Shown here one piece after another: positions 19,965 through 50,046 of a stretch of DNA of 64,000 bases. The position numbers and the translations under genes are program-made. Every line of letters starts with the position of its first letter. The stretch's first letter is position 1. Below the pieces are notes generated by a model, which saw only the letters and a list, made by a program, of their open reading frames with translations, had not been told where the DNA came from and did no database searches. Source of the DNA: a plasmid; sequence record NZ_CP123987.1. The stretch is one strand, 5' to 3'.

Positions 19965-20822
19965 TCAGTCAGATTCGCATCCAGAATCCTTAACCCATCT
20001 TTCAAAGATAGCGTCACGTCTTGCTTCTTTATCCTTCAACATTCCATGTGTTTGTAACCAAACGTTTTTCGCAAAATTCAGTACTGCTTGCTCATATGTA
20101 TTACCACCACAATCCAAAGCAATATCATGATAGTAAGTTGTTGCGTATGGGACATCAGTATCATCTAAAACATGATATCCACCCTCAGCCCACCATTCTA
20201 CTTTTCCACTTGTTTCACTAGAAGTTGGATAAATATCCATAAAGTTTAAATTCATGTGTGATGTCTCCCAGAAGACTCTATTCCCATGAACATTTTCTTT
20301 CCAGAAATTAGGATGTGTCCTAAGCCATTCATAAATTAATAGAAAATTTTCATGCGTAAAACTGTCTTCTTTGACTTTCTTATCCAAATTTTTCCATTCT
20401 TGGTACTCATCTTCTAGGTTCTTAACACTATAGTCACCATGGTGTCTGAAAATTAGGTGATTCTTTGTCCAAAAGAAATCATCGCTCAAATTTCCAAATT
20501 CTCCTTTTTCATTAAGATCTTCATCTTCAGGTTCACCAAATACTTCATGTGCTATTTCATCTGAAAACCAAACTTCTCCGTCATTATCAGCTTGAGAGTA
20601 GGCTTCCAAGAAAGAATCATATACATAATCTACTTTTCCTAAATTTTCCTTATATTCCAATGAATATCCTAATTCCTCACTAAAGTAGATCCCCCATTTA
20701 TCATGTTTATTCTTTAGGATGATACGTTCTTTTTCAAATAGTTTTAGGTAATTAGGTGATTCTTTTACAAAATTAGGTATATCATAATTCAAAAATTTTT
20801 CTTCCATGTCATTCATCCTCAC
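19965..20822 (-). CDS. Hypothetical protein (Trp-rich, no recognisable domain)
   Basis: 285-aa ORF with coding-like composition. No family assigned from sequence alone. Confidence 0.5.
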   Translation of the reverse strand: MRMNDMEEKFLNYDIPNFVKESPNYLKLFEKERIILKNKHDKWGIYFSEELGYSLEYKENLGKVDYVYDSFLEAYSQADNDGEVWFSDEIAHEVFGEPEDEDLNEKGEFGNLSDDFFWTKNHLIFRHHGDYSVKNLEDEYQEWKNLDKKVKEDSFTHENFLLIYEWLRTHPNFWKENVHGNRVFWETSHMNLNFMDIYPTSSETSGKVEWWAEGGYHVLDDTDVPYATTYYHDIALDCGGNTYEQAVLNFAKNVWLQTHGMLKDKEARRDAIFERWVKDSGCESD

Positions 20823-21152
20823 TTGTTAATCTACAATAATCCTACCCTAATCTTTACGAAATAAAAATCTACCAGTGGTTTAATGGTAAAGAATATTCAA
20901 AAAATTTTTATTAATTATTATTTTTTAGAACGTTTTACTTTTGCAGCAACTAAGATAAGAAATAGTGGAATAATACCGGCAACTCACCCATATTTAAAAA
21001 TATCAATTATTCAATAGTAATAATACAATAAAAACTAGTATTGACTTTTTCATATGTACTCCTTAACTTCAAAATAAAAAATTAAGAAAAATCATTAAGT
21101 AAAAATATACTTTTTTAATTTGATTTTTCCTAACTTTCTTACTCTATTGATT

Positions 21153-21350
21153 TTAACGCTTTCTTTCATAACGTTTTGTTGTCACCAATGATTGATAGAC
21201 ATATCTTATACCTAGGTAAGTAAATAATATATCAATAATTGCAAATAAAAAATATCCTTTATCAAGAAAAATACTTCCTACTGCTATTGATAACATTACT
21301 AAACCGATATAAAAAGTATAATTTTTATAAAAATTTTTATTTATTTTCAT
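21153..21350 (-). CDS. Small membrane protein (hypothetical)
   Basis: 65 aa, 2 TM segments. Confidence 0.35.
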   Translation of the reverse strand: MKINKNFYKNYTFYIGLVMLSIAVGSIFLDKGYFLFAIIDILFTYLGIRYVYQSLVTTKRYERKR

Positions 21351-21857
21351 ATATTACTCTCCATTTCTACTAATAACTTCAGCTAGATTTTTCCATTATA
21401 TAATTTCATTTCCTAGTTTTAATTTATCATATTCTCAAATCATCGTGCCTAAATTATCGAATTAGGTCTTTTTTAATACATATCTGGCTTAACCAAATAC
21501 GCTTTAAAAAGTTCATATTAGGCTTGAAAAATCATCCTATCTTTCATTTGAAATACAATAACTATAGGTAATTATCTTAAATAAGGATGTGAAAAAAGTG
21601 AATAAAAGAATAGACTACTTTATTGGTATAGCCAATATATGTACAGGAATCCTAATGTTGTTTAATAGTAATAACTTATATCCCTTAATTTTTTGTATGA
21701 TGGGATTAATTTCTATAATTGCAACTACATTGAAGAAGTGAATACTAACTTTTATCTAATTTTGTTTAACATATTTAGCGACCCATTACTTTATATTGTA
21801 AATATATTAATAATAGTCAATAAACATTTGCAAAGATAATCATGAGATGTCATATAA

Positions 21858-21893
21858 AGAGGGTTGGAATACCCTAAGTTCCAACCCTCTTTA
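21858..21893. terminator. Terminator hairpin downstream of the QS operon
   Basis: AGAGGGTTGGAA...TTCCAACCCTCT perfect 12-bp stem. Confidence 0.8.
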
Positions 21894-22139
21894 TTAATTA
21901 TATTTTCTATTTTGTCTAATTTCTTTAATCAACATAACTATAAAAATCATTAATGTTCCCAATAAGATTAAACCTCTCATTGTTAACATAGGAGTTCGCA
22001 TAAGCCCATTTAAATTCAGTAATATTAACAATAGAAACCCTGCATACTTACTATTTCTCGTAAAATTCACTTTCAACCTTGAAATTACCATAAACCCTAC
22101 AATTAGCAATATAATAATACTTGTTTCTACCATGATCAT
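21894..22139 (-). CDS. Small membrane protein encoded downstream of the response regulator
   Basis: 81 aa, 3 TM segments. Last gene of the HK-RR operon. Confidence 0.5.
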   Translation of the reverse strand: MIMVETSIIILLIVGFMVISRLKVNFTRNSKYAGFLLLILLNLNGLMRTPMLTMRGLILLGTLMIFIVMLIKEIRQNRKYN

Positions 22140-22168
22140 TCACCACCTACACTAATAAACACAAAAAA

Positions 22169-22963
22169 TTAAACTGTTTTCAAATTATACCTTTCAATCA
22201 AACTTTTCATTTTAGCCTTACTTCTCCTAGGAAAAGTCTCCTTATATCCATCTTTAAAAGAAATACTCCTTGTTGACAGGTTAATTTCAACAATATTACT
22301 TGGATTAGCTAAACAAGATTGTGATATTTTTTCTAGAAAATCATTTTCTACCTCTAACTTCTTAATATCGCCTGTAAACTCACCCATACCATTAACTGTA
22401 ACTATTTTCAATCTATGTGACTTAGGAGTGGTAATAATATATAGAATATCATTGATATTTTCGTTAATAATTCTTCTGCCCATTTTATAGCTAAATGTCA
22501 TTTTCTTTATGGCATGAGATTCCCTAATTCTCCTTGCAGCTAATGATAAAGTCTCATTTAGTCGTTTTTGAATCACTTCATCATTATCATTTTTAGTAAT
22601 AAAATCCAATGCTCCAGTACGACGTCGATAAGTCATTGCTGCTAGATTTTCATAAGCTGTAATAAAAATTATCTGTGCATTTGGATCTTTTTGTCTAATA
22701 AATTCAGCTAAATCTATCCCATCTCTATCTGCTTTATCTTTACTAAGTTCAATATCTAAAAAATAAACTCCACTATCTACTTTGTTATCTTCCAAATAAT
22801 CGGCTACTTCAATATAACTATTAGCTTCCAAAGTTATTTTAAATTTTTTACCTTTACTGTCAGCAGAATCTTCTAAAGACCAAATAGCATATTTAACTAG
22901 ATCATGTATCCTTCTAACTTGATCCTTCTCATCGTCACAAATAATAATTCCATATTCTTCCAA
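22169..22963 (-). CDS. LytTR-family response regulator (AgrA/PlnC-like)
   Basis: N-terminal receiver domain (IIICDDE... D.. K) and C-terminal LytTR DNA-binding domain (YIITTPKSHRLKIVTVNGMGEFTGDIKKLE). Confidence 0.85.
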   Translation of the reverse strand: MEEYGIIICDDEKDQVRRIHDLVKYAIWSLEDSADSKGKKFKITLEANSYIEVADYLEDNKVDSGVYFLDIELSKDKADRDGIDLAEFIRQKDPNAQIIFITAYENLAAMTYRRRTGALDFITKNDNDEVIQKRLNETLSLAARRIRESHAIKKMTFSYKMGRRIINENINDILYIITTPKSHRLKIVTVNGMGEFTGDIKKLEVENDFLEKISQSCLANPSNIVEINLSTRSISFKDGYKETFPRRSKAKMKSLIERYNLKTV

Positions 22964-22976
22964 ATTAAACTACCCC

Positions 22977-24264
22977 TTAAATGCTCATAACCATAAGGAA
23001 AGTAAACCAACCATCTTTAATTTGATAATTAATAAAAATATCATTATAAGATTGACTTAATTCTTCTATATTAGCTAATCCTAATCCGTCATGATTCTTC
23101 TTAGTTGTAAAACCTGATTTTTTTATATCTTGAATTGTTAGATCGGTATCTCGATAACGATTTCTAATCTCAATTTCAAGTTCACCATTTTCTTGATAAA
23201 TCATAGTATCTATCTTAGCTTCATCACCAAACTCAAGACTTTCTTCAATTGCATTATCGTACACAATTCCTAATATTCTAACAATGTCAAACGAGTTATA
23301 CTTATTCGACAAGTTTTCTATCACAATTCGACATTCAAAAGAATATTGAATATTGTTTTGAAAGATTCTATTCAACTTACTGATAAATAGACTCTTTAAT
23401 AATTCATCTTTAACATTGTCAACATCATTAAACTGCCATAATACTTTATCTTCTAAAGTCTTACTTGAATATTCAGCTAGTTTATCTATTAACTCTTTAT
23501 CATGACTTTTTTTACACTGAGTTTCAAGCTTAATAGCATATTTTGATAATCGTGCTTAAATTTACGTAAACCTCGCTGGCTACTTTCTAACTGTTGTGTA
23601 TAAATTTTTAGATCATTAATTTGTTGTAAACTTAATTTATCCTGCCGTATTTTCTTATTAATGGAATATACAAATAATGAAAAGAACAATTGGCTAACAA
23701 CAACTACCGTAGCTATAATATACGATACTGCATCTATATTAAATACATATGTTGTTAGATAGTAAATAACCATTGAACTAATCCATATGTATAAAATTAA
23801 ATAAAAATACAATAATCCATACTCATCATCTAGTTTCTCTATTATAGTCGTCTTTGTTAAAATTATATATTCAAAAATGTTTAATGACACATCTAATATT
23901 ATCACACTGACCATTGTGTAATAATTTGTAAATAATGTAAAAAATAATGCTGAAGCACCGAATGTTATATAGGAAAATAAATCTAGCATTAACAACCTTC
24001 CACATAATCTGTAATCCAAAGTTAGTTGTCTGTATACAATATAAAAAATAAAAATTTCAATAAATGGTGCAAAAAAACCAATAATATCTCCAACACCATT
24101 AATTAAAAGAATTACAGGAAAAGTAAGAAGTATAAATAATAAATTATACTTCTTACTTTTCCTAGTAGGGGTCAAAAGATAAAAAAACTATATCTACAAA
24201 AAGTATTTATAAATAAAATTAGTGTAGCTACTATATAACCAGATGTTGAATTTAAATTAACCAT
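22977..24264 (-). pseudogene. AgrC-like (HPK10) histidine kinase, frame-disrupted
   Basis: ATG at 24262-24264 overlaps the IP stop (TAATG). The frame is lost at an A7/T7 tract at 24181-24187. The TM sensor plus H-box (RKFKHDYQNML) ORF runs 23489..24175. The HATPase part (GLGLANIEE) 22977..23375 is in the same frame but separated by TAA, TAG, TAG. The intervening 45 nt read sensibly (SHDKELIDKLAEYSSK) only in another frame. Confidence 0.7.
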
Positions 24265-24380
24265 TATTTACAAACACCAAAAAATGTGAATATACATTGC
24301 CATCTTTTAAAGCCACCCTTTTTGGTTGCTCCCCCAGCTATTTTCTGTAACTTCTTTTCTGTTAACACTTCAAACTTCAT
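24264..24380 (-). CDS. Induction-peptide (autoinducer) precursor with double-glycine leader
   Basis: Unannotated 38-aa ORF MKFEVLTEKKLQKIAGG/ATKKGGFKRWQCIFTFFGVCK. RBS GGAGAG 7 nt upstream. Immediately upstream of and overlapping the HK start. Classic IP-HK-RR arrangement. Confidence 0.75.
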   Translation of the reverse strand: MKFEVLTEKKLQKIAGGATKKGGFKRWQCIFTFFGVCK

Positions 24381-24499
24381 AAAAAATCTCTCCTTTGTTA
24401 TCTTTATTACAAATATAGTTTAACATTTTTTAATCTACTTTATTCGTTTTTTATCATATTCGGTTCATTTTAATGCTTATTTGGATGAAATTCTTAAAA

Positions 24500-24688
24500 C
24501 TATAGCCACCACATAAAATTTAACACCCACGCTCTCACATAACTTATTTTCTTATTCTTTTCTATGACTTTCTCATCAAATAACTTATGATGCCCCTCTT
24601 CTTTTAGACTAGTATAAATACTGATAAAAATACTATATGCAACTATTACAGTAATCCCAAATATCATATACTCACTTCCTAATCCCAA
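24500..24688 (-). CDS. Small membrane protein, candidate bacteriocin immunity protein
   Basis: 62 aa with one TM segment, directly downstream of the two bacteriocin peptide genes. Confidence 0.4.
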   Translation of the reverse strand: MGLGSEYMIFGITVIVAYSIFISIYTSLKEEGHHKLFDEKVIEKNKKISYVRAWVLNFMWWL

Positions 24689-24811
24689 AATATATTATGT
24701 TCTATTAAAAATAAAAGTAGTGTCAAATTTAGCTATATACTATAACTTACACTTGACACTACTTGAAGAAAAATAGATTTATTTCTTATTTTCTAATTCA
24801 TTAGACTTATT

Positions 24812-25018
24812 CTAACGGCAACTTGTAAAGCCACCAGAAATTCCACCCGCTACGGCTGACCAGGGTCCACCGATAGCTCCAATTAAAGCTCCACCTACGA
24901 TGCCAGCTCCACAGTGAACCCAGCGATTTCCACTACCACCATAACCATTTTTACCACCATTTACTGATGCTAAGTTATCTTCAGTCATAATTGTGAATCT
25001 TTTATCTAGATTTTTCAT
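24812..25018 (-). CDS. Class IIb bacteriocin peptide (beta-like), GG-leader, Gly-rich
   Basis: MKNLDKRFTIMTEDNLASVNGG leader, then KNGYGGSGNRWVHCGAGIVGGALIGAIGGPWSAVAGGISGGFTSCR with multiple GxxxG motifs. Resembles LafX/GatX-type peptides. RBS AGGAG 9 nt upstream. Confidence 0.8.
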   Translation of the reverse strand: MKNLDKRFTIMTEDNLASVNGGKNGYGGSGNRWVHCGAGIVGGALIGAIGGPWSAVAGGISGGFTSCR

Positions 25019-25035
25019 TTTAAATTACTCCTATA

Positions 25036-25227
25036 TTATAAACAAGTAAGTGCTCCGCCTACCATTCCTAAGTTTGCTCCACCTACAATACCAGCTGGTC
25101 CAAGTGGAACTCCTGCAGCTGCTCCAGCAAATAGACCACCTAAAAAGTTACCTACACAGTTAGGACCACGTTTCCCACCATCAACCTTTGCTAACTCACA
25201 TTCTGTCAATACTGTAAATTCCTTCAT
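25036..25227 (-). CDS. Class IIb bacteriocin peptide (alpha-like), GG-leader, Gly-rich
   Basis: MKEFTVLTECELAKVDGG leader, then KRGPNCVGNFLGGLFAGAAAGVPLGPAGIVGGANLGMVGGALTCL (GxxxG-rich, 2 Cys). RBS AAAGGA upstream. Start chosen at MKEF; an alternative ATG lies 3 nt upstream. Confidence 0.8.
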   Translation of the reverse strand: MKEFTVLTECELAKVDGGKRGPNCVGNFLGGLFAGAAAGVPLGPAGIVGGANLGMVGGALTCL

Positions 25228-25235
25228 CATGATAA

Positions 25236-25493
25236 TCATCCTTTCATATGTTTATTTACTTTCATCGCAGTATCTAATAAGTAAAGTAGTGTACTACCAC
25301 CTACTAGACAAAAAATAGTGACTATTATCATTTTAGGCGTTTGAATATAATCTAAATAAGACATTTCCTCATTACCAAACAGCCATATTCCTAGTGGAAT
25401 CAATAGTGCCCAAATAACTGGAGCAATAACATATCTCTTCTTTCCTCTAATGAATCCACCATCCAACCAAGTCTCCCATAGTTTTTTTAGCAT
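25236..25493 (-). CDS. Two-TM membrane protein translationally coupled to peptide alpha (immunity / accessory candidate)
   Basis: Stop overlaps the peptide start (ATGA). Start chosen at MLKKLWETW because of the RBS AAAGGGTG. Confidence 0.45.
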   Translation of the reverse strand: MLKKLWETWLDGGFIRGKKRYVIAPVIWALLIPLGIWLFGNEEMSYLDYIQTPKMIIVTIFCLVGGSTLLYLLDTAMKVNKHMKG

Positions 25494-25622
25494 GTAAGAA
25501 CACACCCTTTCTAAAACACTTGTGAAACATATACTTACACTTTTATTGTATTATCATTCCGTATTCAAATATCGATTTAGCGTAAAATACGTTATTCTAT
25601 ACCTAGTTGGTTACATTTCTTT

Positions 25623-25796
25623 TTAACTACAAATATTTTGATTTGAGTGTCTTAATCTTTTAAAAAATTTAGTATTAGCAATTGTACAGCCTATATCGTA
25701 ACCAAACTGTCCGCTATCTATATAATCATAAGAATTTCTTCCACCAATTATATGTGCCAATTCTTTCTTATCAACTTGTACAAAATTATTATTCAT
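25623..25796 (-). CDS. Unannotated GG-leader peptide (bacteriocin-like or pheromone-like), 57 aa
   Basis: MNNNFVQVDKKELAHIIGG/RNSYDYIDSGQFGYDIGCTIANTKFFKRLRHSNQNICS. RBS GAGGTG 9 nt upstream. TATAAT box about 30 nt upstream. Below the ORF-track length cutoff. Confidence 0.65.
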   Translation of the reverse strand: MNNNFVQVDKKELAHIIGGRNSYDYIDSGQFGYDIGCTIANTKFFKRLRHSNQNICS

Positions 25797-26028
25797 AACT
25801 TCAACACCTCATAATTTTAAAAATTTATTATAGCTATAATTTACACTTATAATTATTCACTTCATCTGCTCTTTTTGACTATTTCTTCTAATTTTGCTAA
25901 ATTTTATTCTTATTCTCTTTTTTCAACCAGATAGGCACCGCTTACTACCAAATTGGAAAAATCCCCTCAATTCATCACTTTCTATGTGATAATAAAAATA
26001 CTTTTATAATGAATTGAGGTAAAAAATT

Positions 26029-26292
26029 ATGAATAGTTTTTCTAATAATATTAATTTCAGCAAAATTTCTGTTTCACTAATTACTTTATTCCTGTTGATC
26101 TGGACATTAGTTGATGGAAATCTAATTCATCTTGGTATATTGGCTTTTTCTTCTTTGGTTACAACCATGCTACATTTTCACTATTTTGAATCTACTGATG
26201 ACAAACATCCATTAAATAGAATTGATTTTGGATTACAATTACTATTTATCTTTATTTCTATTATTAAGTTTTTCTTGATTTCAGGAAGATAA
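26029..26292 (+). CDS. Small membrane protein (hypothetical)
   Basis: 87 aa, 3 TM segments, RBS GAGGTAAA. Followed by the terminator at 26299-26340. Confidence 0.45.
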   Translation: MNSFSNNINFSKISVSLITLFLLIWTLVDGNLIHLGILAFSSLVTTMLHFHYFESTDDKHPLNRIDFGLQLLFIFISIIKFFLISGR

Positions 26293-26298
26293 CAATAA

Positions 26299-26340
26299 GC
26301 CTATCAGGTATCAAATTACACCTGATAGGCTTATTTATTA
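26299..26340. terminator. Bidirectional terminator
   Basis: AAGCCTATCAGGT...ACCTGATAGGCTT 13-bp perfect stem. Confidence 0.8.
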
Positions 26341-26650
26341 ACAATTTTGTACTTCTTTTTAAATTTTCTTTCTGGTATAATTTTACGATTAGTGAAATCC
26401 AAGTAATCGCCTATATACCCACTTGCATAAGTTGCCCACCAACCTGAAGGCTCATTAAATAAAGTCTTAAAATTCGTCCAAGCACTAATTTTAACAGGTG
26501 CCTTAACTCCATTCATAATAAATAACAATTTATCACCTGATCACTTTAGATAGTTAGCTTTAAATGCTTCTTTTATCCATTCAGGTTGTTCTGCTGTTTT
26601 ACTTATCTGCCATATTTGTACTTCTTTACCTTTATAGATTGCTTTCATAG
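26331..26650 (-). pseudogene. Paralog of the 28767..29120 protein, inactivated by an in-frame TGA
   Basis: MKAIYKGKEVQIWQISKTAEQPEWIKEAFKANYLK*SGDKLLFIMNGVKAPVKISAW...KKYKIVNK is collinear with MKAIYRGRKVDVWQVSRDNVQPDWVKDAFEHNGLRWLHGSGNKVRIYWPAV...KKYRIVSED. TGA replaces the Trp codon. Confidence 0.6.
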
Positions 26651-26869
26651 AAATCACCTTCTACATATAATTAAAGAGCTCTATTAATTACATTTTCATT
26701 ATACTATTTTCATAATACATCCAATGCTAAATTTCTTAACTAGCACTATTTCTTACTTATTTGGTAAATAGTCCAAATAAGTAGTTATTGCTACCATTCC
26801 AGCAGTTTATCACACTATGTAGACATTATTTGCAATAATTACATATATACGATTAGGGGGATTGAAAAA

Positions 26870-27841
26870 ATGAGATACATTAAATTTACTTTACTAATAT
26901 ATTCTTTTTTACTAACTTGGGGAATCACCACGAATAGTATATCAGCGGATGAAGTTACACCTACTACAACATCTGAAACAACAGTTACGCCTCAAAGTCA
27001 AAGTACACCTGTTGATTCTAATGATGAGGATGCTGCAATTGAAGAAAAATTTTACTCTCATGATGTTACAATCGATAAATATAATCAAAATGTGGCAAAC
27101 TTCAATAAAGTTAATACTGATACTGTTAAAACCATGGTTACTGAAAATAGCAACAATCTAGACCAAGTTCTTTACATTGGACGTCCTACTTGTTATTTTT
27201 GTCGGCAAGCTTCTCCACATCTACGTGATTTTAACCAACTAATAAATAATCAGCTTTACTACTATGATATTGATGCTGAACCTAATGCTCATGATTTTGC
27301 ATTTAAAGAAATTGGAATTTCTGGAACCCCAACAACTATGCGTTTAAAGAATGGTAAAGTTGTCAGTGCTTGGATTGGTGGCGAAAAAACAGGACAAGAA
27401 TTTTATGACTTTTTATTTTCTGCAGATGCTAACAAGTTAGCAGATTCCTATATCATAAAGAAAACTGTAAGCACGGATACTTCAAATCCTGTTATTACAA
27501 ATAATCAAAATGTTGAACCAACTGTTAAGCCTATATCAACAAATATAAATCAGCTTAAAGAGGAAAAAACTACTCCTGAATTGGTTAATACTACTTCACA
27601 ATCATCTAAACCTGTTAAAAAAATTCATAATCAAACTACTAATAAGAAAAACAAAAATTCTGTTCTACCACAATTAGGGGTTGTCCCTCTTTATCATCAT
27701 CCATTATTTAAACTTCCTATTCCTCGAATTATCCCTAAGCAATTAGAACGTACTATAATGTTAATTACTTTTCTAGTTCTGTATTTGGGGTTCTTAATAT
27801 ATTTATGGTTGAGCTGGAAAGACATAAATAAAAGGAAGTAG
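26870..27841 (+). CDS. Secreted thioredoxin-like (CxxC) protein with C-terminal TM anchor
   Basis: Signal peptide, CYFC motif in a thioredoxin-fold-like region (YIGRPTCYFCRQASPHL), Thr/Asn-rich linker, and a C-terminal hydrophobic helix plus KDINKRK tail. Confidence 0.6.
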   Translation: MRYIKFTLLIYSFLLTWGITTNSISADEVTPTTTSETTVTPQSQSTPVDSNDEDAAIEEKFYSHDVTIDKYNQNVANFNKVNTDTVKTMVTENSNNLDQVLYIGRPTCYFCRQASPHLRDFNQLINNQLYYYDIDAEPNAHDFAFKEIGISGTPTTMRLKNGKVVSAWIGGEKTGQEFYDFLFSADANKLADSYIIKKTVSTDTSNPVITNNQNVEPTVKPISTNINQLKEEKTTPELVNTTSQSSKPVKKIHNQTTNKKNKNSVLPQLGVVPLYHHPLFKLPIPRIIPKQLERTIMLITFLVLYLGFLIYLWLSWKDINKRK

Positions 27842-40364: not shown

Positions 40365-40683
40365 AATGAATTGTGAGGTAATAGATTATGAAAAAACTTT
40401 ATTCTGCTCTTATGACTGCATTTAACGAAGATGGTTCTGTTAACTTAGACGGTGTTCGTGAAATGGTTCGTTACAATATTGATGTAAATCATATCGATGG
40501 ACTTTATGTAGGTGGTAGTACTGGTGAAACTTTCATGCTTAGTACAGAAGAAAAAAAGAGTATCTTCAAGGTTGCTTATGAAGAAGCTGCTGGCAAAACA
40601 CATCTTATTGTAAACACACTATAGTGTGACATTACAGATAAAAAGGCCCTCAAAATCACATTTTCCTAGTGATTTTGAGGGCC

Positions 40684-42210
40684 TTACTTTGTACAAATTT
40701 CTTTAACTTTAGAATTCCATGGCAAATAAGCTCCAACCTTGACATTTTCTCGTTTTTCTAATAGTGAGAAAATGTAGTTGAAATACTTGAATATATCTAA
40801 GCCATTCAACTTGGCTGTTTGAACTAAACTATAAAATATTGCACTAGCTTTGGCACCATCAACGCTTCTCGCAAACAATGAGTTCTTACGAACTAAGGTA
40901 GATAGCCTAATCACTTGTTCTATCGGATTGTTTGATAGAGGGAGTTCGCCAATTTTATATATATTTTCTAATCTAGGCTGAAATTTTTTGGCATATTCAA
41001 CAGCTTTCTTTAATTTACTGCTAGGATTAGGGATAGTATCCAGAAAATCGTAGAATTCATCAACATATTTTTTCAAATGAAGCTTCCGCTTCAGTACTTT
41101 TTCTTCTGCATTTTGATACTCAAGCTTCTTTTCTTCTTTAAAAATACGATTTAATAATTCTACCGCTCTTACTGCATATGATCCTCTTCCTTGTTTTAAA
41201 GATTTGACTATTTCCACAAAATGTCTGCGTATATGCACCAAACAGCTACCATATGTAATTTGTGGATACATTTCACTGCTATAGGCATTATAACCATCAC
41301 ACATAATTGCTCCAGTGTAAGCTCCAACCAGATTAGAAATATTTTCTTGCTTTCGGCTACTAGAGTAATTAAACACCACTATTTGATGATTTGAAAATTC
41401 TTCTGTCGTTCTCATTACCCAAAAATACGATTTACTTCGATTCTTTTCTTCCAACACCTGAAAAGGAGTTTCGTCCATATGAATAACCGGATTTTTCAAT
41501 AAAATCTTAGTAAGTTCATCGTGAACCGTTTCTAACTGTTCACTCAATTTAATGATGGCACGTGCCATATGCTTTGTATCTATTGGTAAGCCAATATGTT
41601 TAAAATATATTGCTTGTCTATTCAATGGTACAGCCATTAAATATTTAGAAGTAACTACTTGAGCCAATACACTACTGGAAAAATAACTATGTGGAAAAAT
41701 AGGACTAGTAGGTACTTTACCGGCAACTATTTTATCGCCACCTTTTGGGTGGCAATTTTCACATTTATAGGTTTGCTGATAATGATTACGACAAAAAAGC
41801 TCAGGTTGTTTCAAGCCTACCTCTCGATAAACACATTTTTTGCCAATTAGAGTGAGTTTTTCATGACAATCAGCACAATTTTTTTGTTCAAGATCATGAA
41901 CGACATCTACTTGTACTAAAGTATCAAGAAACTCAGCTCGTTGACCACGTGGTTTAACTTTTCGGTGGCAAACTACTCTAAGCTCTACTTCAACTTCTTC
42001 ATTTTCTTTAGATGAAATATCAGAATCTATATCTAATTCTTCTAATTCAGCCTCTGAAAAAAATGAAAGTTGATTTTTATCTAATTTTTCCGTTTTTTTT
42101 CCAAAAATACGGGCATTGAGAAGCTTAATAGTTTCAGACAATTCTTCAATCTTTTTATGAAGTTGTTGATTTTCCTTTTCAAGCTCCTCTATTCTTTTGT
42201 CTTTATCCAT
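40684..42210 (-). CDS. tnpC: IS66 family transposase TnpC
   Basis: 508 aa with a leucine-zipper-like N-terminus, CxxC...CxxC zinc finger and DDE region. Confidence 0.85.
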   Translation of the reverse strand: MDKDKRIEELEKENQQLHKKIEELSETIKLLNARIFGKKTEKLDKNQLSFFSEAELEELDIDSDISSKENEEVEVELRVVCHRKVKPRGQRAEFLDTLVQVDVVHDLEQKNCADCHEKLTLIGKKCVYREVGLKQPELFCRNHYQQTYKCENCHPKGGDKIVAGKVPTSPIFPHSYFSSSVLAQVVTSKYLMAVPLNRQAIYFKHIGLPIDTKHMARAIIKLSEQLETVHDELTKILLKNPVIHMDETPFQVLEEKNRSKSYFWVMRTTEEFSNHQIVVFNYSSSRKQENISNLVGAYTGAIMCDGYNAYSSEMYPQITYGSCLVHIRRHFVEIVKSLKQGRGSYAVRAVELLNRIFKEEKKLEYQNAEEKVLKRKLHLKKYVDEFYDFLDTIPNPSSKLKKAVEYAKKFQPRLENIYKIGELPLSNNPIEQVIRLSTLVRKNSLFARSVDGAKASAIFYSLVQTAKLNGLDIFKYFNYIFSLLEKRENVKVGAYLPWNSKVKEICTK

Positions 42211-42284
42211 AGTTCGCCACCTCCTCTTTTAAGATTATGCTTAAAAGCATACCAGTAGGCAGCGTTTTTAGTAAAGAAAAATTT

Positions 42285-42641
42285 TTAATAAAATGCACCT
42301 TTTGGTGCTAAATGTACTTTGGGTTGTGGTAAAGGATTAAGTCCACTTAAAAGTAAGTCAATTTGTTGGTTATCTAATTCTTTAACTTCTTCACTAGTTT
42401 TCGGCCAAGTTAAATTACCATTTTCGAAACGTTTATAGAGTAGTATAAAACCTTCACCATCCCAATAAAGAGCTTTAAATCTGTCGTTTCTTCGACCACA
42501 GAACAAGAAGATTGAATCATTATAAAGATTCATACCAAAATTATCGGCAATTAAAATTGCCAGTGTATCGATTCCTTTACGTAAATCAGTGTTGCCACAA
42601 ACAATATATACATGTTTAGGAGAGTGATAATTAACTAACAT
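42285..42641 (-). CDS. tnpB: IS66 Orf2 (TnpB) accessory protein
   Basis: 118 aa, conserved IS66 Orf2 pattern (DLRKGIDTLA...LYWDGEGF). Confidence 0.8.
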   Translation of the reverse strand: MLVNYHSPKHVYIVCGNTDLRKGIDTLAILIADNFGMNLYNDSIFLFCGRRNDRFKALYWDGEGFILLYKRFENGNLTWPKTSEEVKELDNQQIDLLLSGLNPLPQPKVHLAPKGAFY

Positions 42642-42882
42642 ATTTCTTTATCAACTCCCAGACGTCATTCATTACTTCAGTATCAACTCCGTGACACAAC
42701 AAAATTTTCACCTTATCAAATTTAATTTCAGCATCTAAATTCAATTTGGTTGTTTTAATTTTAGTTGCTGTTTTCCGTTTTTTAGTTGGTTTTACTTCAA
42801 CAATTTCAGTTTCTTCCATTGTATAAAAAATCCTCCTATACTTTTTATGATAATAGTATAGGGGGATTTCAAATTTTTTCAT
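42631..42882 (-). CDS. IS66 Orf1 (TnpA-like) small protein
   Basis: 83 aa, overlaps Orf2 as is typical for IS66. Confidence 0.5.
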   Translation of the reverse strand: MKKFEIPLYYYHKKYRRIFYTMEETEIVEVKPTKKRKTATKIKTTKLNLDAEIKFDKVKILLCHGVDTEVMNDVWELIKKYVS

Positions 42883-43586
42883 ATTCAGCTCATTATAAAG
42901 TACTTACATCTTATTGCTCAAGTAGGGTCTTTGAATTTAAATGAAGCAAAAGAATTAGCTAAATATGTGACTGATTTAGGTTACCCTATGATTTCTGCTG
43001 TTACACCTTTCTATTATAATTTCTCATTTGAACAAATTAAGAATTATTATAATTCAATTCTTGAAGGTGTAGATAATAAACTTATTATTTATTCTATTCC
43101 AGCTTTAACAGGTGTAGCATTATCTCTAGATCAATTTGCTGAATTGTTTGAAAATCCAAAAATTGTAGGTATTAAATATACTAATGCCGATTTCTATCTC
43201 CTAGAACGTGTTCGTAATCGTTTCCCAGATAAGTTAATTCTTTCAGGTTTTGACGAAATGCTATTACCTGCTCTTGCATTGGACGTTGATGGTGCAATTG
43301 GTTCAACATTTAACTTAAACGCTCCTCGTGTTAAAGAAGAAATTGCAGCTTTCGAGGCTGGAGATATAGAAAAAGCTCGTGAACTTCAAACATTAAGTAA
43401 TGACTATATTACTGATCTTTTAAATAATGATTTATATCCAACTATTAAGTTAGTATTTGAAAAAATTGGTGTTCATGCTGGCTACTGCAAAGAACCTATG
43501 AGCAAGCCAACTCCTGAAATGGAAGCTGGAGCTCAAAAGATTTATGAAAAATATTTCAAAGAATAGTAGAAATTGGGGTGAAGATT

Positions 43587-47966: not shown

Positions 47967-48126
47967 TAAATGATAACAATTACTATTTAAAAAGTCAATA
48001 AAAATTATCATATTCAGAGTAAAGTTAAATAATTTGATTACTTTTTTTCAATTTTCTACAATTATCTTATTAACTACTCTAAGATTAGAAGGGAGAACGG
48101 CATTTTTTTTATTGCCTATTAATTCA

Positions 48127-50046
48127 TTGAAATATATTGTTACTGGAATTATTGCCAATGTTGATGCAGGAAAAACTACTCTTTCTGAAGCATTACTATA
48201 TCAAACGGGAAATCTACTCAATTTAGGTCGCGTTGATAACGGCAATACTTTCTTAGATACTGACCAACTAGAAAAAAAGCGTGGTATTACTATTTTTTCA
48301 CACCAAGCAAATTTAGAATATAATGATCTTTCACTGACAATTTTAGATACTCCAGGACACGTTGATTTTGTTACTCAAACCGAACAAGTTTTAAGTGTTC
48401 TTGACTATGCTATATTAGTTATTTCTGCTACTGATGGAATTACTAGTCACACTAGATCTCTTTGGAATTTGCTAAATCATTACCATATTCCTGTATTTAT
48501 TTTTGTTAATAAAATTGATATCAGCACTAATAAGGCCTCACAGATTTTATCTCAATTAAAAAGTGAATTAGATGAATCAATTATTGATTTTTCTTCTGAT
48601 AATATGATTGAAGATATTGCAACGTGCAATGAATCATTATTTGAAGAGTATTTGCAAATTAATACCATATCTGATGAAAAAATTCTATCACTAATCTCTG
48701 ATAGAGTTATTTTCCCATGCTATTTTGGCTCTGCTTTAAAGTTAGATGGTATTGATAAATTTTTACAAGGATTCAATCAATGGACAAAAAAGTTACACTA
48801 TCCGAATAATTTCCAAGCCAAAGTATTTAAAATTTCTCACAACGATAAAGGTGAACGTCTAACCTGGCTTCGTATTCTAGGCGGCTCTCTAAAAACTAGA
48901 GATGAATTATTACCTGAACAAAAAATTAGTCAAATTAGAGTATATAATGGTGAAAAGTTTTCAACTTACCCAACTGTTACTGCTGGTCAAGTTTGTACAA
49001 TTCCTGGGCTAGTAAATACCTATCCTGGTTTAAGCATTGGTAAAAAACAAGTAGATACAATTCCAATCGTTACACCTGTTTTAAGTTATGCTCTTGACCT
49101 CAATGGCAATGATATTCAAGCTTGTTTAAAAGCTCTTCATGAATTAGAAGATGAAGATCCTAAGTTACATGTTACTTGGTCTGAACATCTCAAAGAAATT
49201 AGTGTACAAATTATGGGAGAAATTCAGTTAGAAATCCTAGAACAAATACTCCTTGATCGATATAATTTAAACGTCACTTTTACTAAAGGAAATATTTTAT
49301 ATAAAGAAACTATCACTAATTCTATTGAGGGAGTTGGTCACTTCGAACCACTTCGTCATTATTCAGAAGTACATTTATTATTAGAACCTGGAGAAAGAGG
49401 CAGTGGTCTCCAGTTCGAAAATCAATGTAGTCTAGAAGTCTTAAATAAAAATTGGCAACATCAAATTATATACAATCTCAAGTCTAAAGAGCATCTAGGT
49501 GTATTAACTGGTTCCCCTCTTACTGATGTAAAAATTACCCTTTTAGGCGGGAAAGCTAGCAATGTACATACAGTTGGTGGAGATTTTCGTCAAGCATGTA
49601 GTCGTGCAGTTCGACAAGGTTTAATGATGCTCAGAGAAAATAATAATTGCCAACTCTTAGAACCTTGGTATCGTTTCAGACTAAAAGTTGATCGTACTCA
49701 AATTGGTCGTGCAATCAATGATATTCAACGAATGCATGGTACCTTGGATGAACAACAAGTTGAGGGGATACTAACTGGAATTGCTCCTGTTTCAGAAATG
49801 TACAATTATGCCACCAATGTACGCGCATATACTCATGGGAATGGCACACTAGAATTGGAAATTGCTGGTTATTATCCTTGTCATAATTCGACAGATATAG
49901 TATCTCAACAAAATTATGATCCTGTATCAGATTTAGAAAATACTCCACAATCTGTTTTCTGTGCTCATGGAGCTGGATATACAGTTGACTGGAAAGATGT
50001 ACCTACAACTATGCATTGCGAGTATTTTTGGAATGGGATGAATTAG
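48127..50046 (+). CDS. TetM/TetO-family ribosomal-protection-type GTPase (EF-G paralog)
   Basis: G1 motif ANVDAGKTT and the VDNGNTFLDTDQLEKKRGITI segment parallel TetM [21 protein letters not shown]. Also DTPGH and NKID motifs. About 640 aa from TTG 48127. The ORF track extends to 48034. Confidence 0.7.
   Translation: MKYIVTGIIANVDAGKTTLSEALLYQTGNLLNLGRVDNGNTFLDTDQLEKKRGITIFSHQANLEYNDLSLTILDTPGHVDFVTQTEQVLSVLDYAILVISATDGITSHTRSLWNLLNHYHIPVFIFVNKIDISTNKASQILSQLKSELDESIIDFSSDNMIEDIATCNESLFEEYLQINTISDEKILSLISDRVIFPCYFGSALKLDGIDKFLQGFNQWTKKLHYPNNFQAKVFKISHNDKGERLTWLRILGGSLKTRDELLPEQKISQIRVYNGEKFSTYPTVTAGQVCTIPGLVNTYPGLSIGKKQVDTIPIVTPVLSYALDLNGNDIQACLKALHELEDEDPKLHVTWSEHLKEISVQIMGEIQLEILEQILLDRYNLNVTFTKGNILYKETITNSIEGVGHFEPLRHYSEVHLLLEPGERGSGLQFENQCSLEVLNKNWQHQIIYNLKSKEHLGVLTGSPLTDVKITLLGGKASNVHTVGGDFRQACSRAVRQGLMMLRENNNCQLLEPWYRFRLKVDRTQIGRAINDIQRMHGTLDEQQVEGILTGIAPVSEMYNYATNVRAYTHGNGTLELEIAGYYPCHNSTDIVSQQNYDPVSDLENTPQSVFCAHGAGYTVDWKDVPTTMHCEYFWNGMN

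Follow-up and report, generated by a model that had tools for sequence, protein, structure and literature searches.

Can a bacteriocin locus that keeps its structural, inducing and regulatory genes without an exporter still make and sense its bacteriocin, or has it fallen silent? The question is raised by a 64,000-nucleotide stretch of plasmid DNA (record NZ_CP123987.1; hereafter the window), in which nine genes or gene groups lie on the minus strand between positions 21894 and 25796, according to a list of its open reading frames (ORFs). An earlier sequence-only reading of the window had described, in this order, a double-glycine (GG) leader peptide, a protein with two transmembrane (TM) segments, two class IIb bacteriocin peptides, a one-TM protein, an inducing peptide (IP), a histidine kinase, a response regulator and a small membrane protein; the ORF list bore out both the gene content and the order, and Pfam supported the gene calls. 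That reading had further proposed that the peptides depend on a transporter encoded elsewhere, or that the locus is decaying or belongs to a cheater. We conclude with high confidence that this is the ABP-118/salivaricin B locus carried by repA-type megaplasmids of Ligilactobacillus salivarius, and that this copy is non-functional and decaying. Both the type of locus and its decayed form have already been published, and the locus of the window is most likely an ordinary, silent one, because the exporter is missing and the kinase gene, abpK, is broken.

The ABP-118 system

In a complete ABP-118 locus, four precursors are synthesised with double-glycine leaders: the inducing peptide AbpIP, the bacteriocin peptides Abp118alpha and Abp118beta, and SalB. 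Their leaders are cleaved, and the peptides exported, by AbpT, an ABC transporter with a C39 peptidase domain that works with the accessory protein AbpD. Once outside the cell, AbpIP is sensed by the membrane kinase AbpK, which activates the LytTR-family regulator AbpR. Canonical AbpR binds 9-bp direct repeats separated by a 12-nucleotide spacer and induces the immunity-alpha-beta, salB, abpIP-abpK-abpR and abpT-abpD operons. The exported alpha and beta peptides, both rich in GxxxG motifs, jointly attack the membranes of target cells.

Identity of the locus

When positions 20800-27000 were compared with annotated plasmids by megablast, the 27 records matched were solely L. salivarius megaplasmids, with pLS2102-15_1 as the top match (99.9%). 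The whole window is collinear with this plasmid (NZ_CP090412.1) at approximately 99.95% identity, the exception being an insertion of the IS66 family of insertion sequences (IS) at 40611-42905. The locus is also syntenic with the abp118 locus on pMP118 of strain UCC118, whose ABP-118 was characterised by Flynn et al. 2002, as cited in PMC5610712 and PMC10095417. The two loci share the gene order salB, DUF5976 immunity gene, abp118alpha, abp118beta, abpIM, abpIP, abpK, abpR and orf79, and their flanks agree as well, with a thioredoxin-like protein on one side and a hypothetical protein, an integrase and a fructose-bisphosphatase (FBPase) on the other.

Family assignments were made with Pfam, and the matches were judged to be well beyond chance; NCBIfam contributed no specific assignment for alpha, beta or the immunity proteins. 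In agreement with the class IIb two-peptide operon proposed earlier, both structural prepeptides matched Bacteriocin_IIc (PF10439) over its gathering score: alpha (64 amino acids; minus strand, 25036-25230 from the annotated start, listed as an ORF at 25036-25239) at 1.1e-15, and beta (68 amino acids; minus strand, 24812-25018) at 8e-14. Their leaders, read from the sequence, end in VDGG and VNGG, each followed by K, and several GxxxG motifs are present. The mature peptides are KRGPNCVGNFLGGLFAGAAAGVPLGPAGIVGGANLGMVGGALTCL (alpha) and KNGYGGSGNRWVHCGAGIVGGALIGAIGGPWSAVAGGISGGFTSCR (beta). Both prepeptides are 100% identical to those of UCC118 in amino-acid sequence, with one synonymous nucleotide difference in alpha and two in beta, and the near-identical plasmid and UCC118 share the RefSeq identifiers WP_003703435.1 (alpha) and WP_003703485.1 (beta). 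As adjacent GG-leader prepeptides with the mature sequences of Abp118alpha and Abp118beta, the two are, on sequence, the structural peptides of ABP-118. Peptides of the same amino-acid sequences made in vitro inhibit indicator strains jointly and not singly (PMC10095417). The beta peptide of the window carries T44 and R47 in its mature part, the Abp118 form, whereas those of JCM1046 and of the exporter-less SNK-6 carry A44 and H47 (T44A and R47H); these two C-terminal changes fit the published finding that Abp118 and salivaricin P differ at two residues (PMC5610712).

The remaining GG-leader peptide upstream is presalivaricin B, SalB (57 amino acids, V6 allele; minus strand, 25623-25796), for which Pfam gave a ComC-type leader (4.8e-4). 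The protein is identical to that of CECT 5713 and differs from that of UCC118 by one change in the leader, I6V, with 7 nucleotide differences in the gene; the name SalB is that of PMC10095417, where the peptide made in vitro was inactive. With alpha, beta and the inducing peptide described below, the locus holds four GG-leader precursor genes, all of them intact.

Two putative immunity genes lie beside the structural genes, and both of their ORFs are intact. The first encodes a two-TM protein of the DUF5976 family (Pfam, 1.8e-35; minus strand, 25236-25493), putatively conferring immunity to Abp118/salivaricin P; its ORF is listed at 25236-25505, and the true start is probably the ATG at 25493, which gives 85 amino acids. 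It is 100% identical to the UCC118 protein, with 3 nucleotide differences, and the gene in this position, upstream of the core peptides, is ascribed an immunity role in PMC11617682, which cites O'Shea et al. 2012 for it. The second, abpIM (minus strand, 24500-24667; listed at 24500-24688), encodes a membrane protein of 55 amino acids from the ATG at 24667, has no match in a Pfam search, and shows 89.1% amino-acid identity to UCC118, with 8 nucleotide differences. The name of immunity gene was given to abpIM by Flynn et al. 2002, as that work is cited.

UCC118 differs from the window in having a second DUF5976 segment of approximately 560 bp with a 'bacteriocin-like prepeptide' gene (L002:11309-11871, compared with window 25236-25613). 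This second, diverged immunity-gene segment (approximately 71% amino-acid identity) is present in both UCC118 and CECT 5713, and the segment is single-copy in the window, pLS2102-15_1 and JCM1046. The pattern is consistent with the loss or gain of some 560 bp by recombination between the repeats.

The exporter genes are absent

In UCC118 and CECT 5713, abpT (719 amino acids, annotated as a 'peptide cleavage/export ABC transporter') and abpD (HlyD family) directly follow abpR and orf79. When AbpT and AbpD of UCC118 were used as tblastn queries against the 64-kb window at E<=10, a single 16-residue noise match was returned, and the C39 domain alone gave no match there. Searched in the same way, the full 140.8-kb nearest plasmid, pLS2102-15_1, contains neither a C39 domain nor an AbpD homologue; its AbpT-related matches are ABC ATPase domains only, the best of them in a NisT-like gene. 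The earlier statement that no C39 exporter or accessory protein is encoded near the locus thus holds for all 64 kb, and the dedicated AbpT and AbpD of a complete locus are lacking. The missing exporter is no puzzle, since it represents a recurrent and already described allele.

In the window, 933 bp (20923-21855) replace the 3.4-kb abpD-abpT segment of UCC118. The regulatory operon ends in a terminator hairpin of 17 pairs (21854-21894, terminator scan), which marks the right boundary, and homology to UCC118 and CECT 5713 restarts at 21854-21856. Within the segment lies orf65 (minus strand, 21153-21350), which encodes a two-TM protein of 65 amino acids that has no match in a Pfam search; it shows 83-91% amino-acid identity in eight other plasmids. 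JCM1046 has the order box1-orf65-box2-abpT-abpD, with orf65 between orf79 and abpT, so orf65 is a variable cassette of the locus, and the box2-abpT-abpD part is what the window lacks. Beyond orf65 is an orf44 pseudogene for a small membrane peptide (MKKSILVFIVLLLLVIDIFKCGRVAGIIPLFLILV...; minus strand, 20923-21053), in the position of the end of abpD in UCC118. Intact orf44 (44 amino acids) is found in LPM01, SNK-6, S32, ZLS006 and 2D, and by comparison with these copies the gene is frameshifted both in the window and on pLS2102-15_1. A 325-bp insertion (21488-21812), which separates the orf79 terminator from the orf65 box, contains a plus-strand ORF for a 50-amino-acid membrane protein; among the plasmids compared, it is complete only in the window and pLS2102-15_1, with partial similarity in B4311.

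Three other views of this segment were rejected. The 933 bp are not unrelated filler, as they contain a box, orf65 and orf44. The box is not a leftover promoter of the exporter operon, because in JCM1046 orf65 and abpT own separate boxes. Nor do some 12-15 nucleotides at the junction represent a 3' remnant of abpD: homology to UCC118 restarts at 20922, at the abpD stop codon, and no remnant of abpT or abpD is therefore left. Short-word BLAST of the 137-bp junction piece against abpT-abpD found chance matches only. The alignments of all exporter-less plasmids run unbroken over window positions 20600-21487 (for LPM01, as far as 21474) and span the two edges of the 137-bp junction piece, which indicates that the window and six other exporter-less plasmids carry one structural allele.

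The kinase gene carries two frameshifts

The inducing-peptide gene abpIP (minus strand, 24264-24380; 38 amino acids) is intact. Its product matches Pfam DUF5836, the AbpIP family (5e-30), and bears the RefSeq label 'induction peptide AbpIP family'; the gene has no nucleotide difference from that of UCC118 (100% amino-acid identity), and the predicted mature peptide is ATKKGGFKRWQCIFTFFGVCK. The response-regulator gene abpR (minus strand, 22169-22963) is intact as well. It encodes a LytTR-family protein of 264 amino acids (Response_reg and LytTR in Pfam) that is identical to AbpR of CECT 5713 and 97.0% identical to that of UCC118, with 25 nucleotide differences. The last gene of the abpIP-abpK-abpR operon, orf79 (minus strand, 21894-22133; listed at 21894-22139), encodes a small membrane protein of approximately 80 amino acids that has no match in a Pfam search and keeps this position in UCC118, CECT 5713, JCM1046 and others.

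Between abpIP and abpR, abpK is a pseudogene (minus strand, 22977-24264). Alignment with the intact 429-amino-acid AbpK of UCC118, an AgrC-type HPK10 histidine kinase, divides it into fragments of 30, 228 and 132 amino acids separated by two frameshifts; HATPase_c_5 (2.5e-14) matches the last fragment only. The first lesion is a T8->T7 deletion near 24188 and the second an A8->A7 deletion near 23514, the latter accompanied by an adjacent C->T substitution. Both deletions are common to CECT 5713 and 2102-15, whereas UCC118, LPM01 and SNK-6 have an intact ORF of 429 amino acids. The lesions were judged from the assembled sequence, where both lie in homopolymer runs; that independent assemblies share them, and that one is linked to a C->T substitution, argues for inherited mutations over read errors. 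The description of the regulatory genes as a textbook three-component system stands for the module itself and for its intact inducing peptide and regulator. It does not stand for the kinase, which is in three pieces, and the module of the window is not intact for that reason.

Further changes in the kinase gene were seen in other plasmids. The sister plasmid pLS2102-15_1 has additional frameshifts in abpR (a 1-nucleotide deletion) and at the 5' end of abpK. The A8->A7 deletion is also present in ZLS006, there with the preceding C kept and the T8 tract intact, and this slip may have arisen more than once. JCM1046, S32, 2D and B4311 carry another pherotype allele of abpK/abpIP, with an AbpK that is 68-70% identical and a different inducing peptide; this abpK has AAAGAAAA in place of A8. 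Programmed frameshifting or phase variation at the abpK lesions had the homopolymer context as its sole support, and we keep it only as speculation.

Conserved regulatory boxes

The regulatory box consists of two 9-bp direct repeats with a 12-nucleotide spacer, CCNNNTNNG-N12-CCNNNTNNG. An undirected search for 9-mer repeats at a spacing of 19-23 nucleotides was swamped by AT-rich chance pairs, and it was the comparison of promoters across genes and strains that revealed the box. The pattern matches 3 times in the 64 kb, against 0.18 expected, and none of 100 shuffled sequences reached 3. All three matches are inside the locus: upstream of orf65 (minus strand, 21458-21487; CCAGATATG-N12-CCTAATTCG), where the box is homologous to the abpT box of UCC118; upstream of abpIP (minus strand, 24455-24484; CCAAATAAG-N12-CCGAATATG), 75 nucleotides from the ATG; and between the minus-strand salB and a divergent ORF (25927-25956, matching in the plus orientation). 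The boxes of the window align with the box upstream of UCC118 abpT and with both JCM1046 boxes, and we infer that AbpR binds them. The direct-repeat boxes of a complete locus are thus present.

A fourth box, for the immunity-alpha-beta operon, was read by eye and from the box alignment at 25581-25610 (minus strand). Its left repeat is CCAACTAGG and its right repeat TATTTTACG, with a TACAAT -10 hexamer approximately 37 nucleotides downstream; it does not match the strict pattern, and we regard it, with low confidence, as a probable degenerate AbpR box. The box at 25927-25956 lies 73 nucleotides upstream of the divergent ORF, which encodes a multi-TM membrane protein of 87 amino acids (plus strand, 26029-26292), at the same distance as the abpIP box from abpIP. 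This ORF may belong to the AbpR regulon, for example as the immunity gene for SalB.

Two further hairpins were recorded in the locus. A putative terminator after beta (minus strand, 24706-24763) has an 11-bp stem (AGTAGTGTCAA...TTGACACTACT) followed by TTTTATTTTT; it was read directly, because its loop of approximately 26 nucleotides is beyond the range of the terminator scan, and its function is an assumption from its form. In the 5' coding region of abpK, the scan found a perfect 20-bp hairpin (minus strand, 24116-24163) with a predicted RNA folding energy of -29.3 kcal/mol (z -9.4), which is kept in UCC118, LPM01 and SNK-6. Lying just 3' of abpIP, it may, speculatively, act as an intra-operon attenuator that sets expression of the pheromone gene above that of the kinase and regulator genes.

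Comparison with other plasmids and published strains

We compared the window with 11 loci from other plasmids. The exporter genes abpT and abpD are absent from the window, 2102-15, LPM01, SNK-6, S32, S35, ZLS006 and 2D, and abpT is frameshifted in JCM1046; abpK is broken in the window, 2102-15, CECT 5713 and ZLS006; and alpha and beta are replaced or absent in ZLS006 and 2D. The loci form a mosaic of decay, in which loss of the exporter, loss of the kinase and replacement of the structural genes occur in differing combinations. In PLSDB, 11-12 L. salivarius plasmids have abpT-abpD, and approximately 15 have the locus without them. In JCM1046 (pMP1046A, L005:3673-5830), tblastn placed abpT in two frames, split by a frameshift at approximately codon 288, another and independent route of decay.

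Three relatives of the window bear most directly on its state. UCC118 differs in having abpT, abpD and an intact abpK, where the window has orf65 and the orf44 pseudogene instead of the exporter genes. CECT 5713 (plasmid pHN3) shares both abpK frameshifts, identical AbpR, orf79 and SalB, and flanks that are 99.7-100% identical, but differs in having intact abpT and abpD and neither orf65 nor orf44. Because CECT 5713 shares the kinase lesions yet keeps the exporter, the kinase was probably lost before the exporter cassette in the lineage of the window, an order that recombination could blur. A clean deletion of abpT abolishes bacteriocin production in UCC118 (PMC3281923), and CECT 5713 is described as a non-producer owing to the abpK frameshift in PMC11241558, which cites Langa et al. 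2012.

The third relative, P1CEA3 (CP116812-CP116815), agrees with the window in every reported descriptor, the level at which the two were compared. Frameshifts have broken its abpK into three ORFs, it has neither abpT nor abpD, and its genome holds a nisin S cluster (PMC10095417). As in the window, its alpha and beta genes have 1 and 2 nucleotide substitutions and encode peptides identical to those of UCC118, its SalB is the V6 form, and AbpIM, AbpIP and AbpR are 89%, 100% and 97% identical to UCC118. Liquid chromatography-tandem mass spectrometry (LC-MS/MS) of P1CEA3 detected neither Abp118 nor SalB, and the strain is highly sensitive to Abp118 made in vitro (PMC10095417); its immunity is therefore not expressed.

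Poultry isolates designated Type B have likewise lost lanT (abpT) and hlyD (abpD) while keeping the structural and upstream immunity genes; they are non-producers that are still immune, and the loss has been called polyphyletic (PMC11617682). In gene content, with the exporter genes absent and the core and upstream immunity genes kept, the window is of this type, and its exporter-less allele is also found in SNK-6 (from a hen), LPM01, S32, ZLS006 and 2D. The phenotype differs, in that the Type B strains are reported immune whereas the kinase of the window is broken and the matching strain P1CEA3 is sensitive; the source strain of the window has probably not retained immunity.

A probably silent locus and the alternatives

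These observations lead us to propose the following state. Without AbpT and AbpD, the pheromone, alpha, beta and SalB would be neither processed nor exported. With abpK frameshifted twice, the pheromone, including that of neighbouring cells, would go unsensed. The operons would remain at a basal level, with no Abp118 made and no immunity induced, and we infer that the source strain behaves like P1CEA3.

Several points weigh against this proposal. The 64 kb of the window are the part of the source genome that was seen, and a C39 ABC transporter may be encoded on the chromosome or another plasmid. Both kinase lesions are in homopolymer runs, classic sites of sequencing error. The structural, immunity, inducing-peptide and response-regulator genes are intact, and the changes in alpha, beta and the inducing peptide are synonymous only, so that the intact genes could reflect continuing selection rather than recent decay. 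In principle, another kinase could activate AbpR. A second GHKL/LytTR pair is present on the near-identical plasmid approximately 5 kb to the right of the window (L009:31039-32730, NZ_CP090412.1); its regulator is annotated as two separate coding sequences, and cross-talk from this pair to the AbpR boxes is conceivable.

A broader reading would join the states of the different plasmids: a single exporter-less cassette allele would be spreading, and slippage hotspots at T8 and A8 of abpK would generate producers, eavesdroppers and deaf-mutes. The junctions are common to all seven exporter-less plasmids examined, as is the orf65-orf44 cassette driven by an AbpR box, although the isolates are of human, pig, hen, horse and badger origin; a single cassette allele may thus have spread where a 'polyphyletic' loss of the exporter has been described. 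In the abpK allele of the UCC118 pherotype, the T8 and A8 tracts may be hotspots that repeatedly disable quorum sensing; the idea comes from the A8->A7 change in two sequence backgrounds and from the interrupted tract in the allele of the other pherotype. Such slippage would be comparable to the agr-defective variants seen in staphylococci. We regard this joint reading as possible but rather unlikely.

Could the source strain instead be an immune cheater or eavesdropper, which dropped the exporter, kept inducible immunity, and survives near producers of Abp118 or salivaricin P by responding to their pheromone? The idea has been published for L. salivarius, where chicken isolates of Type B are reported to withstand salivaricin P and to live alongside its producers (PMC11617682). 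The DUF5976 protein, AbpIM, AbpR and the boxes are all intact in the window, and the model fits LPM01, SNK-6, S32 and 2D, which are exporter-less with intact abpK. In the window, however, abpK is broken twice, and exogenous pheromone would go unsensed through the cognate kinase; moreover P1CEA3, which matches on every reported descriptor, is highly sensitive to in-vitro-made Abp118 (PMC10095417). Of the two outcomes offered by the sequence-only reading, decay is thus upheld, and a cheater is improbable here.

It is very improbable that the strain is a functional producer that uses a C39 transporter encoded elsewhere in its genome, with the kinase frameshifts being assembly errors or bypassed. 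The four GG-leader precursor genes are all intact, as is abpR, the visible genome is limited to 64 kb, and homopolymer indels are common assembly errors. Yet the nearest plasmid is without a C39 domain over its entire length, three or four assemblies made independently contain the frameshifts together with a linked substitution, and strains with these abpK lesions are reported as non-producing (PMC10095417; PMC11241558, as it cites Langa 2012). Deletion of abpT alone is furthermore sufficient to stop production in UCC118 (PMC3281923), which indicates that, in UCC118 at least, there is no redundant exporter.

Finally, the suggestion that the peptides form an uncharacterised class IIb variant, akin to lactacin F or gassericin T, would fit the Bacteriocin_IIc match and the GG leaders and GxxxG motifs usual in this broad family, but it is refuted beyond reasonable doubt, because the prepeptides are residue for residue those of UCC118 Abp118alpha and Abp118beta under the same RefSeq identifiers, the inducing peptide is likewise 100% identical and the third peptide is presalivaricin B. 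With Bacteriocin_IIc as its basis, any resemblance to these two bacteriocins would extend no further than the family, and the exact Abp118 match makes the comparison unnecessary. We therefore retain the silent, decaying ABP-118 locus as our reading of the window.

Other features of the replicon

A nisin-family lantibiotic cluster with the order A-B-T-C-R-K-F-E-G is present on pLS2102-15_1, approximately 2.8 kb beyond the left end of the window (L010:1679-12066, corresponding to NZ_CP090412.1 102578-112965). It is of the nisin S type: its mature peptide, ITSYSLCTPGCKTGALMGCTMKTASCGCHVHISK, has T20 and S25, both given as unique to nisin S, and the nisin S cluster of P1CEA3 is expressed (PMC10095417). 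Since this cluster is on the near-identical plasmid, the replicon type carries a second bacteriocin cluster.

The IS66-family insertion noted above, which is present in the window and absent from pLS2102-15_1, contains an ORF of 508 amino acids at 40684-42210 (DDE_Tnp_IS66, 4e-74). At 48034-50046 (plus strand), an ORF has the domain set of EF-G/Tet(M)-like proteins; on the near-identical plasmid it is annotated as a ribosomal protection protein of the TetM/TetW/TetO/TetS family, and IS remnants lie nearby.

Next to the locus, and divergent from it, the window and several of the compared plasmids carry the gene for a thioredoxin-like protein of 323 amino acids (plus strand, 26870-27841), which is hydrophobic in stretches at its two ends and has a CYFC motif. 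The mature alpha, beta, inducing peptide and SalB contain exactly two cysteines each, and the thioredoxin-like protein may help disulfide formation in the GG-leader peptides.

Significance

The value of this locus as a discovery is small, as the bacteriocin, its regulation, its exporter and both defects have been published for L. salivarius; the single exporter-less allele across hosts and the homopolymer hotspot in abpK are mildly new, and speculative. In a species used as a probiotic, the putative Tet-family ORF could be of interest. Its practical use is for annotation: genome-mining tools and sequence readers will flag the locus as that of a producer, whereas we predict an Abp118 non-producer. 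The distinction matters for a species whose strains are sold as probiotics because of Abp118. Taken together, the plasmids compared provide a small population-genetic picture, which could be used in the study of the social evolution of bacteriocin loci.

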